This document shows positions 11,001-62,923 of a stretch of DNA of 64,000 bases, in pieces (positions within the stretch are counted from its first letter, which is position 1; each line of letters starts with the position of its first letter). Both the position numbers and the translations under genes were made by a program. This DNA is from Leucoraja erinacea (taxonomy: Eukaryota). The notes under the pieces are model-generated. The model did no database searches, had not been told where the DNA came from, and worked only from the letters and a program-made list of their open reading frames with translations. The stretch spans positions 124,001 to 188,000 of the forward strand of contig NW_026575374.1 in assembly GCF_028641065.1 (NCBI RefSeq), read 5' to 3'.

Positions 11001-11784
11001 CCATACTAATTGGTAAATTAGTCTTCCACAGGTTAAATAGTTGCACTTCCATTATTGAAGAAGTTCAACATTCGTTTGGCGTGAAATAATTGGGGCATAG
11101 GGCCTGTTGCCATGTTGTATGACTCTCTAACCTTAGGAGTCGCCATGGACCCAAATGTATCTGGGTCGGGGAGGGGTGAACATGCCTAAAATGAAAATCC
11201 TCATATTGGGTACGGAAGCAGTAGAGATTGAGACTAGGGCGTGCCATCTTTGCAAGAGGAAGTAAGATGTCCCCAACAACTCTCACCAACATCTACAAGT
11301 GTGCCATAGAAAGCATTTTATCAGGAGAAGTGCGTGAGATGGCTTGACAAAGCGAAGGTGCGCTGTTCATAGTTTTTGGTTCAATTCATTTTTTTTAATT
11401 TACAATGGTCAACAATACATTCATGTAAAGAAATATAACCTGTCATTTTGTTTCCTTCAAAATAAAGGTACACCAATCTAAATCTTGCTGAAGGATGAAA
11501 CAGGGTGCATTATAATCTGGTATCAGGTATTTGATCTGGTATGTTGGTTCACATGCTTGATCAATGGTGTTTTATCATTAATGTCTTATTATTATTCATG
11601 TTTAGTGTTTCCTGAGTCATTCGTAACTGTCACTGTATGTCATGTTGTTACTTGAGGGCGGAGCACCAAGGCAAATTCCTTGTATGTGAATACTTGGCCA
11701 ATAAACGTACTTACTTACTTGAAACCAGAGGGGGAATGGAGTGTTCAGGGACGCGGCTTTGTGTCGTTAGGAGCAGCGGATTGG

Positions 11785-11856
11785 GCAGCTCCAATCGGAT
11801 TATGGGCGTGGCCCAATCGATTGTCTCTCCCCTGTCCGCCTTTCGTTTTTATAAAC
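11785..11856 (+). promoter_or_regulatory. H1-like gene promoter (CCAAT x2, GC box, TATA)
   Basis: ccaat at 11791 and 11813, gggcgtgg near 11804, tttataaa near 11848; the GC box and TATA are conserved in the copy upstream of 59806. Confidence 0.65.
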
Positions 11857-11913
11857 CGTGATCCTGCACAGAGCTGCCACTTCTGTAGCGGTGTCCATCC
11901 GTTGGAAGTGGAA

Positions 11914-12522
11914 ATGGCCGAGATCGTACCCATCAAGGCGGATATTGCCGCCGCTATCCCTCCTGATCTCACCAGTGGTCCGGTTTTCTCGGCCCCTCCC
12001 GTCGCACTCGCTGCCACGAAGAAGAAGGCGGCCTATCGCCCGCAGAAGGGAGCAGCAGCCGCCGTGGCCGAGCAGATCCTGGAGGCTGTGGCCGCCACCA
12101 AGGAGCGTCAGGTTGCCAAGCTGGGCGCTGTAAAGAAAACTGTATCGGCTGCCGGCTACAGGACGGACAAGGTCGGCGCCTGGCCAAACAAGTCTGGCAG
12201 CGCGTTGGCTAACAAGAGCACCCCATCTGAGGACGGCACTGACACTTCCGCGGCCACTCTCTCGGAGCGGGTTAAGGAGCTGAGAGGGACAGAGGGCGAA
12301 CAGGGAGAAGGCAAAGGTCGGAACAAAAGGAACACCAAGAAAAAAGCGCCTGCGAGGAAAATGGGCCAGAGGAGAGCGGCACGTGTTAAGCCTGCCGCCC
12401 AGGAAAGGATTCAAAAACCGGCGGCCAAGAGTCCCAGCAAGCGCACGGCGGACAAGAAAGGGTCCAAGGGACCTGCCTCCAGAGCTGGAGGGCGACAACG
12501 ACGGGTAGCCAGAAAGAGGTAG
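11914..12522 (+). CDS. Divergent linker histone H1-like protein, 202 aa
   Basis: ATG in good Kozak context downstream of TATA. VAEQILEAVAATKERQVAKLGAVKKTVSAAGY aligns to H1 [32 protein letters not shown]. Basic K/R/A/P tail, then a perfect histone stem-loop. Confidence 0.85.
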   Translation: MAEIVPIKADIAAAIPPDLTSGPVFSAPPVALAATKKKAAYRPQKGAAAAVAEQILEAVAATKERQVAKLGAVKKTVSAAGYRTDKVGAWPNKSGSALANKSTPSEDGTDTSAATLSERVKELRGTEGEQGEGKGRNKRNTKKKAPARKMGQRRAARVKPAAQERIQKPAAKSPSKRTADKKGSKGPASRAGGRQRRVARKR

Positions 12523-12546
12523 ACAAAACCCGAACAGCCAAACAAA

Positions 12547-12562
12547 GGCTCTTTTCAGAGCC
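12547..12562 (+). terminator. Histone mRNA 3' stem-loop
   Basis: GGCTCTTTTCAGAGCC followed by ACCCA; purine-rich taggag downstream is a putative HDE. Confidence 0.95.
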
Positions 12563-13183
12563 ACCCATACATCTTTATTAGGAGTTACTGGCAATAGGGT
12601 TATTTCTCCCAGATAAATCTTAATAGAGACATCGAGCTGTCAGACTTTGTCACGCCCCTCATTCTTTTCAGCTTTCTCCCACCCATTGCGATCAGTCTGA
12701 AGAAGGTCTCGACAGATGTTGCCTAACTAGCGGAATTCCTCCTGCACTTTGAGTTTTGCACAGAAACAAGCCCTTCATGATCAGAATCAGATTTTATTCG
12801 CCAAGTATGTTTTGCAACATAAGAGGAAATTCACTGGCCATGTCAGTCATACAATTAAATTGGCCAGGTCAGTCATACAATTAAAAGCAACAGACTCAAA
12901 GACACATTTTAACATGAACATCCATCATAATGACTCATACACATTCCTCACTGTGATGGAAGGCGAAATAAAGTTCAAGTCCTTCCCTTACGTTCATCAT
13001 TGTTCGGGGGCCTCGAGCCCCCGTTAACGGGATGATCTTGAATCCCGTAGCCGGTGGCGTTCGGGCCCCTCCGCGTTGAGGCGTTCATCTCCCGCATCGG
13101 TGGGTTGTCAGCTCCCCCCGCGCCGTGCGATCAAACCTCGCGTCGGGGCTGGTCGAGCATTCTGCGGCGTTGGAGCTCCCGAC

Positions 13184-18708: not shown

Positions 18709-19310
<602 letters not shown>

Positions 19311-24015: not shown

Positions 24016-24444
<429 letters not shown>

Positions 24445-41260: not shown

Positions 41261-41626
41261 ATGCCTGAGCAGCTGAAAACAGCTCCCAAGAAGGGCGCTA
41301 AGAAAACCTTACCGAAGCCAGTGGGCAAAAAACGCAAGAAGTCGAGGAAACAGAGTTACTCCATCTACATCTACAAAGTGATGAAGCAGGTTCACCCTGA
41401 CACCGGCATCTCTTCCAAGGCGATGGGCATTATGAGCTCGTTCGTCAATGATATTTTTGAGCGCATCGCGGGCGAGGCGTCCCGCCTGGCCCATTACAAC
41501 AAGCGGTCCACCATCAGTTCCCGGGAGATCCAGACCGCCGTGCGCCTGCTTCTGCCTGGGGAGCTGGCCAAACACGCCGTGTCCGAAGGGACAAAGGCGG
41601 TTACCAAGTACACCAACTCCAAATAA
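41261..41626 (+). CDS. H2B: Histone H2B, 121 aa
   Basis: [12 protein letters not shown]...[14 protein letters not shown]...[21 protein letters not shown], with a stem-loop. Confidence 0.97.
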
Positions 41627-59805: not shown

Positions 59806-60378
59806 ATGGCGGAGATCGCACCCATCAAGGCGGATATTGCCGCCGCTATCCCTCCTGATCTCATCAGTGGTCCCGTAACATCGGCTCCTCCCGTCGCACT
59901 CGCTGCCACGAAGAAGAAGGCGGCCTATCGCCCGCAGAAAGGCGCAGCGGCCGCCGTGGCCGAGCAGATCCTGGATGCCGTGGCCGCCACCAAGGAGCGT
60001 CAGGTCGCCAAGCTGGGCGCTGTAAAGAAAACCTCGGCAGCCAGCTGCAGGACGGACAAGGTCGGCGCCTGGCCAAATAAGTCTAACAAGAGCGCTCCAT
60101 CTGAGGACGGCACTGACACTTCCGCGGCCACTCTCTCGGAGCGGGTTAAGGAGCTGAGAGGGGCAGAGTGCGAACCGGGACAAGGCAAAGTTCGGAACAA
60201 AAGGAACACCAAGAAAAAAGCGCCTGCTAGGAAAATGGGCCCGAGGACCGCCGCCCAGAGAAGGGCTAAGAAACCGGCGGCCAAGAGTCCCATCAAGCGC
60301 AAGGCGGCCAAGAAAGGGTCCAAGAGACCTGCCTCCAGCGCTGTGGGGCAGCAACGACGGGTAGTCAGAAAGAGGTAG
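59806..60378 (+). CDS. Divergent linker histone H1-like protein, 190 aa (paralog of 11914-12522)
   Basis: Open frame with the same H1-like helices, TATA near 59740 and a perfect stem-loop. Confidence 0.85.
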   Translation: MAEIAPIKADIAAAIPPDLISGPVTSAPPVALAATKKKAAYRPQKGAAAAVAEQILDAVAATKERQVAKLGAVKKTSAASCRTDKVGAWPNKSNKSAPSEDGTDTSAATLSERVKELRGAECEPGQGKVRNKRNTKKKAPARKMGPRTAAQRRAKKPAAKSPIKRKAAKKGSKRPASSAVGQQRRVVRKR

Positions 60379-60404: not shown

Positions 60405-60420
60405 GGCTCTTTTCAGAGCC
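60405..60420 (+). terminator. Histone 3' stem-loop
   Basis: GGCTCTTTTCAGAGCC followed by ACCCA. Confidence 0.95.

Positions 60421-62449: not shown

Positions 62450-62923
<474 letters not shown>

Follow-up and report, generated by a model that had tools for sequence, protein, structure and literature searches.

An elasmobranch family of linker histone H1 variants with an eroded winged helix

Copy A, a gene in the 64-kb stretch of Leucoraja erinacea DNA analysed here (the window), encodes an H1 variant that keeps helices 1 and 2 of the globular domain, whereas its helix 3 and wing are degenerate. It belongs to a real and conserved, apparently undescribed, family found in 11 elasmobranch species (four batoids and seven sharks, L. 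erinacea included). The family is likely best read as weak H1 variants that do not dock at the dyad, by analogy with mammalian H1t and HILS1. The full explanation that we favour, though tentatively, is an elasmobranch-wide half-domain H1 that likely forgoes dyad docking, binds linker DNA weakly and probably loosens germ-cell chromatin. An earlier note on this DNA had proposed a new sperm or germline linker protein; a real, selected and distinct H1 variant with an eroded winged helix stands, but it is older and more widespread than proposed there. The features of the two family genes in the window are collected in Table 1.

Table 1. Features of copy A and copy B, numbered from the first base of the window
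Feature	Position	Strand	Basis or remark
Family-specific promoter block	11765..11913	+	76-88% identity among 4 copies
Reverse CCAAT	11780..11784	reverse	motif scan
CCAAT boxes	11791..11795, 11813..11817	+	motif scan
GC box	11804..11809	+	motif scan
TATAAA	11850..11855	+	motif scan
Intronless CDS of copy A, 202-aa H1 variant	11914..12522	+	ORF list, phmmer alignment to GH1
Basic patch, helix 1 and loop 1 (aa 34-66; K40, R42 equivalents)	12013..12111	+	most invariant columns
Helix 2 equivalent (aa 69-82)	12118..12159	+	hydrophobic positions, K51/K52 equivalents kept
Degenerate helix 3/wing (aa 87-118)	12172..12267	+	column comparison
Acidic linker (aa 104-132: 8 D/E, 3 K/R)	12223..12309	+	composition
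Basic tail, last 70 aa (14 K, 14 R)	12310..12519	+	composition
SPSK (aa 173-176), only S/TPxK of copy A	12430..12441	+	
Histone 3' stem-loop of copy A	12547..12562	+	Rfam Histone3, fold z -4.7
Purine-rich stretch where the histone downstream element sits	12580..12584	+	sequence, inside Rfam match 12542-12586
Copy B, intact 190-aa paralog	59806..60378	+	same promoter type as copy A
Histone 3' stem-loop of copy B	60405..60420	+	pattern match, fold

Gene, copies and range of the family

No stop codon interrupts the copy A reading frame. The 3' stem-loop scores 37.5 bits against a cut-off of 34 with Rfam Histone3, and the purine-rich stretch downstream is a putative histone downstream element. Copy A has the architecture of a replication-dependent gene: it lacks introns, carries a stem-loop and is clustered with core histones, the window also containing H2A, H2B, H3 and two H4 genes. 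The earlier identification of a stem-loop H1 gene therefore holds, with an intact reading frame and a stem-loop above the Rfam cut-off. Residues 48-105 align without gaps to GH1 (E 8e-4, phmmer with a single sequence), and a profile of the family reaches 4.5e-9 against GH1, with all eight matches being H1. The Pfam Linker_histone model does not recover the gene: copies A and B gave no Pfam match at E<=10, and neither is among the 33 Linker_histone matches of the skate genome. Three of 15 family members match the model at this threshold, the best at 3.2e-4. The mRNA would probably be missed by poly(A) RNA-seq and the protein by Pfam, which would explain why the family was overlooked.

Of 44 candidates scored in a search of the skate genome, 11 matched. 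Full-length, intact genes with a stem-loop account for four of them (A, B, L003, and L004). Copy B is the second family gene of the window, absent from the earlier note, and differs from copy A by in-frame deletions of 3, 15, and 18 nt. The L003 protein is identical to a L. erinacea record named histone H1A-like. Another match (L008, the same locus as L020) is an intact-domain relative. The remaining six are broken: L005-L007 are frameshifted across the conserved segment, L009 has stops, and L010-L011 are partial. This count of at least six broken copies weighs against the explanation that we favour.

Pairwise dN/dS among the four intact skate copies is 0.50-0.74 over the whole gene and 0.08-0.38 in aa 34-66; the high whole-gene values also weigh against the favoured explanation. 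When a codon model was tested by likelihood against omega 1, kappa being taken from a grid, 2dL was 11.5 in aa 34-66, 6.0 over the gene as a whole and 0.4-1.8 in the four remaining segments. Among segments, significant constraint thus falls only on the basic patch and helix 1. In the six pairwise alignments, 27 of 29 gap segments have a length divisible by three and the remaining two add up to 12, with events shared among pairs. These data bear on whether copy A is a redundant, decaying paralog, a young pseudogene of a functional family. Such decay would match the birth-and-death pattern of the broken copies, the dN/dS near 1 in tail and linker of several pairs, and the absence of the exact copy A protein from the protein collection searched. 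It is nevertheless very unlikely, given an intact reading frame, promoter and stem-loop, a CpG o/e of 0.82, three of three indels in frame between A and B, an A-B dN/dS of 0.50 overall and 0.08 in aa 34-66, and an ortholog in Rhinoraja that is 79% identical to copy A.

Outside Leucoraja, the ortholog search found members in Rhinoraja, Pristis, Mobula, Heterodontus, Heptranchias, Pristiophorus, two Scyliorhinus species, Chiloscyllium, and Carcharodon, all under automatic record names only. Since the family occurs in sharks and rays, it predates their split, which took place roughly 270-300 million years ago. P0011, P0029, P0030, P0031, and P0034 are more divergent members. The set suggests a second paralog lineage or more inside the family, in rays and sharks alike. 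Three named Callorhinchus proteins have intact domains, in a search where 17 of the 105 new profile-search rows were named and the library held one representative per 50% cluster. A catshark record named 'dapper homolog 3-like' (P0014) is a mis-annotated fusion of three tandem H1 variant genes, one of them a family member and the others intact variants. In Pristis and Heterodontus, family members and intact-domain variants have consecutive accessions. Together with the catshark fusion, this suggests an old array of variants.

At the level of titles and abstract openings, the full-text literature that was covered does not describe the family; most subscription papers, including the main one on chondrichthyan sperm proteins, fall outside that coverage. 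The accessible part of an elasmobranch genome preprint (bioRxiv) mentions large histone clusters and contains no mention of such a variant.

The family is a clade in three trees with support of 100/97 or better; these trees left out the named mammalian germline H1s. In the tree with bony-vertebrate-type rows, it falls inside a 25-row group of variant H1s (81/99), with the L020 type as its sister (71/72). The earlier note had derived copy A from the replication-dependent lineage. Gene structure agrees and the tree prefers this lineage, yet the alternatives are not rejected: AU tests gave p values of 0.067 and 0.13 for placement beside H1.0/H1.10 and of 0.15 and 0.40 for placement beside canonical H1s. 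Because AU rejects none of the four alternative placements, replication-dependent descent rests on the stem-loop, the intronless gene and the cluster.

Kept and degenerate parts of the globular domain

Columns are numbered on human H1.0, to which 23 is added for the position in copy A. The family set comprises 20 rows, which are not independent; duplicates (P0001, P0003, and P0016), the fused model P0014, and partly deleted or fragmentary records (P0032, P0033, and P0061) were left out. The comparison set comprises 86 intact H1 rows, of which 64 (out of 98) were picked by the wing motif and 22 were others; seven rows without the wing motif were dropped. As these rows were chosen for the wing motif, the wing-motif columns are circular, while the helix 3 columns are not.

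At the eight core positions of helices 1 and 2, family members are hydrophobic at 7.5 on average and intact H1s at 7.6, in agreement with the earlier claim that these helices are H1-like. At the eight core positions of helix 3 and the wing, the averages are 2.1 and 7.7, respectively, and copy A keeps two. The basic residues divide in a similar manner. All 20 members have a basic residue at the equivalents of K40, R42, K51, and K52, whereas one is kept at K69 in none, at R73 in four, at K85 in none, and at R94 in two. All four of the latter are lost in copy A, which also has Lys in place of Ser just before helix 2 and carries prolines at core positions 68 (Pro91) and 81 (Pro104). Pro occupies position 68 in 18 of 20 members and position 81 in 12, with a mean of 3.4 Pro per helix 3/wing segment versus 0.0 in the comparison set. 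The gain of Pro reported in the earlier note is therefore family-wide, but the gain of Trp is not a family trait, since that column holds Trp in 2/20 (the two window copies) and Arg in 14/20. Nor is the segment 'replaced', as had been stated: it is homologous, in frame and degenerate through substitution. In shark orthologs, the acidic linker contains runs of Glu.

A frameshift origin of the odd segment or of its Arg residues was considered and rejected. The segment aligns in frame and the other two frames carry stops; the use of six types of Arg codon also counts against a frameshift origin of Arg. Separately, aa 36-43 (12019-12042) have a KK-x-x-x-YRP spacing identical to that of H3 residues 36-43, a likeness that could be chance or histone mimicry.

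The accessible text of one study assigns K69, R73, and K85 to DNA-binding site I and K40, R42, K52, and R94 to the other site (PMC5645174), and a similar two-site split is described in the available part of another (PMC2685081). Judged by aligned residues, the erosion tracks the boundary between the two sites. Positions 69 and 85 are also non-basic in all eight intact-domain sister proteins scored, so these two losses are earlier and not specific to the family. Because helix 3 and the wing have lost both their hydrophobic core and their basic residues, dyad docking is likely impossible.

An AF2 model of copy A, built with a 15-row family alignment, has a mean pLDDT of 50, no residue at 70, and a single helix (47-60). 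At equal alignment depth, the intact paralog L020 gives three helices and 46 residues at pLDDT 70-90, with a wing that is also low; its best Foldseek match is the H1.0 domain (E 1.0, TM 0.39). The contrast is weak because this control is itself mediocre, and Foldseek with the copy A model gave no match, which is uninformative at such low pLDDT. The models thus support fold loss, short of proof, in line with the eroded winged helix of the earlier note. Overall, the remnant is probably not folded as a winged helix.

A divergent but folded domain, as in H1T2 and HILS1, that binds the dyad with altered geometry is improbable. H1T2 provides a precedent, as an excerpt describes a three-helix domain at <=21% similarity (PMC7788777), and copy A has ungapped spacing to GH1 in a family that often keeps positions 75, 78, and 93. 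The prolines at 68 and 81 are difficult to reconcile with such a fold, as are the 5-aa deletions within helix 3 of copy B and L004 and the insertions in shark members.

The chief rival is docking to a partner through the conserved helices. In such an adaptor or decoy, the basic patch and helix 1, perhaps with helix 2, would form a motif that folds on binding a histone chaperone, a second H1 variant or an import factor, with DNA binding in a secondary role. The hydrophobic faces of helices 1 and 2, left without their helix 3 partner, are as compatible with partner binding or with a residual fold as with DNA binding. Identity across helix 1 and loop 1 is 0.86 in the family versus 0.72 among 37 canonical-type H1s, a loose contrast because the canonical group is not age-matched, and drops within the family to 0.41 in helix 3 and 0.26 in the wing. 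Acidic or Gln residues at positions 30, 34, and 43 are invariant or nearly so, and the basic patch with helix 1 is the sole segment under significant constraint. However, the basic residues that never vary coincide with the known site II set, and any partner is hypothetical. Such an adaptor is a serious but unlikely alternative to the weak DNA binder that we favour.

Regulation, charge and candidate roles

The 150 bases 5' of the ATG are 76-88% identical among the four intact copies, compared with 45-60% further upstream, and the first 70 bases 3' of the stop are 85-97% identical. All eight genome matches of the promoter block lie at loci of the half-domain family. AAACACA, which we take to be the H1-box sequence, occurs at -142 or -150 in all five canonical Lys-rich skate H1 promoters scanned. 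It is absent from the six intact variants scanned and from the conserved block of all four family copies, with one occurrence at -220 in L004. As far as the available text goes, the H1 box is conserved in vertebrate replication-dependent H1 genes (PMC6027317). The promoter described earlier as intact is so in its TATA, CCAAT, and GC boxes but lacks this motif of canonical skate H1s. From these motifs, we infer that the family is regulated differently from canonical H1s. GTCCGC before the TATA box, which presumably resembles the H4 box, was rejected as a mark of replication-independent descent, since canonical skate H1 promoters have it too.

Germline expression of the family is moderately probable by analogy with H1t and HILS1. 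Feature neighbours of the whole protein in the Atlas include a spermatid-specific (0.92) and a testis-specific (0.89) H1 cluster, a lead only; with the domain only, the search returned generic H1 clusters. The RNA depths are not evidence in either direction, because 1-32% of each run was read and the stem-loop (H4) control failed. Depth on copy A was 0 in four runs with tissues not given; in four other runs, copy B was at 0 except for one bin at 0.46, and H4 reached at most 1.35. A catshark sperm proteome contains no histone, H15, protamine or spermatid term in its supplement, and its text lacks 'histone' (PMC11083954); it is uninformative because a general chordate database was used for its search. 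As context, H1-related genes are strongly expressed in coelacanth testis according to the accessible part of one report (PMC3750513).

A non-germline variant with the same weak binding, acting in the embryo or in differentiated cells such as nucleated blood cells, is also improbable, a judgement that draws on mammals. A promoter without the H1-box motif would fit any uncoupling from S phase, and the link to the gonad is itself an analogy. However, the strongly divergent mammalian H1s described in the sources, as far as these were accessible, are germline proteins.

The earlier note had also linked copy A to protamine-like (PL) sperm proteins. Its residue counts for the tail and the single S/TPxK motif are correct, but the composition does not agree with a PL protein. 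Lys and Arg make up 22.8% of copy A, compared with 29-31% of canonical skate H1s, and its net charge of +29 is about half of theirs (+54 to +60). No Arg-dense block exists: at most seven Arg fall within 30 aa, the longest Arg run is two, and 8.4% of residues are acidic. In the accessible portions of three papers, PL proteins are said to descend from H5 and to combine a winged helix with a protamine-like block (PMC13148410, PMC13251019, PMC11607694). That copy A compacts mature sperm DNA as a PL protein is thus highly improbable, although Arg accounts for 0.41 of its basic residues (0.11-0.16 in canonical skate H1s), the tail ends in Arg, and sharks are said in an excerpt to use PLs (PMC13148410). 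The winged helix that defines PLs is degenerate in copy A, and the same genome holds better intact-domain candidates (L034, L029, and L035). These three and L028 (G000 C116, C193) are stem-loop H1 genes with an intact winged helix, Arg-rich tails and shark orthologs. L034 has 23 Lys and 56 Arg (22% Arg) and a net charge of +68; by composition, intact-domain paralogs such as L034 fit a PL role much better than copy A.

In the explanation that we favour, the retained basic face of helix 1, loop 1, and helix 2 would bind linker DNA weakly together with the low-charge tail, with contacts running through K40, R42, and K52. The half-domain protein would compete with or replace canonical H1. Weak binding and the lack of dyad docking would then loosen chromatin where canonical H1 is replaced. 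A more specific proposal, which we consider doubtful, is an H1 subtype as old as the shark-ray split. It would combine a two-helix docking module with a non-S-phase promoter and stem-loop processing, and in spermatogenic cells it would take the place of canonical H1, opening the chromatin ahead of the loading of sperm proteins.

In animal H1, the winged helix is regarded as the conserved core, and the family offers a natural half-domain mutant in which the role of site II and helix 1 can be tested without dyad docking. More broadly, the cluster-encoded H1 variants of cartilaginous fish form a radiation that has been little described and that includes much better protamine-like candidates. This radiation bears on the origin of vertebrate germline H1s and sperm proteins from replication-dependent genes.

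Related variants and known systems

Other histones near copy A are also unusual. Both H4 genes of the window (24127-24444 and 62612-62923) carry T54V and A69S relative to the H4 sequence shared by 11 of the 12 skate copies found outside the window; one adds R67Q and an extended C-terminus and the other S1T. Budding-yeast H4 presumably carries the same two residues, and the pair possibly represents a shared H4 variant. All three H3 genes found on the contig (26474-26884 in the window, L043, and L044) have S96C plus other changes from the reference, which is the sequence of 18 of 25 identical common H3 copies: A29V, V71A, and V89I in the window gene and Q125H in L043 and L044. On this contig, variant histones appear to be clustered. 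The window also contains an H2A with an unusual C-terminus (18709-19098) and an H2B with a short, divergent N-tail (41261-41626). Elsewhere in the genome, L039, L040, and L037 are Lys-rich canonical-type H1s whose wing loop is shortened by a 5-residue deletion.

L020 (G000 C1086) and P0017-P0027 form the sister family, also present in Callorhinchus, with a near-invariant basic patch and helix 1. Their helix 3 and wing are separately and partially eroding in Chiloscyllium, Pristiophorus, and Heterodontus members. No stem-loop pattern was matched within 1.5 kb of L020. These chondrichthyan intact-domain H1s are nearest to the half-domain family in the profile search and share with it Asn69 and a non-basic position 85. 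Unlike the family, most of the L020 type, the Arg-rich L034 type and the 'histone H1-like' records keep the hydrophobic core, the GASGS wing and a Pfam score.

Mammalian H1t (H1.6) is likewise a cluster-encoded H1 with few S/TPXK motifs; it retains a normal winged helix, whereas in the elasmobranch family the core of helix 3 and the wing is gone and an acidic linker is present. The accessible texts describe H1t as a germline H1 within the replication-dependent histone cluster (PMC8015243), and H1t and HILS1 as having few or no S/TPXK motifs and condensing chromatin poorly (PMC6069787). HILS1 (H1.9) and H1T2 (H1.7), which are Atlas feature neighbours, resemble the family in being strongly divergent H1s, in which helicity is low or S/TPXK motifs are missing, as far as their descriptions were available. 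They differ in being replication-independent genes outside the cluster (PMC8015243), with a globular domain described as kept, while the skate gene carries a stem-loop and lies in the midst of core histone genes. PL-I is also derived from H1 with an Arg-enriched tail, but PLs are H5-derived proteins with a winged helix and a protamine-like Arg/Lys block, none of which is seen in copy A. H1 proteins that lack a winged helix are functional in kinetoplastids, alveolates, and Entamoeba, according to the accessible part of one source (PMC8015243). In those proteins, the domain is wholly absent, whereas the skate protein keeps half of it, beside canonical H1 in a vertebrate.
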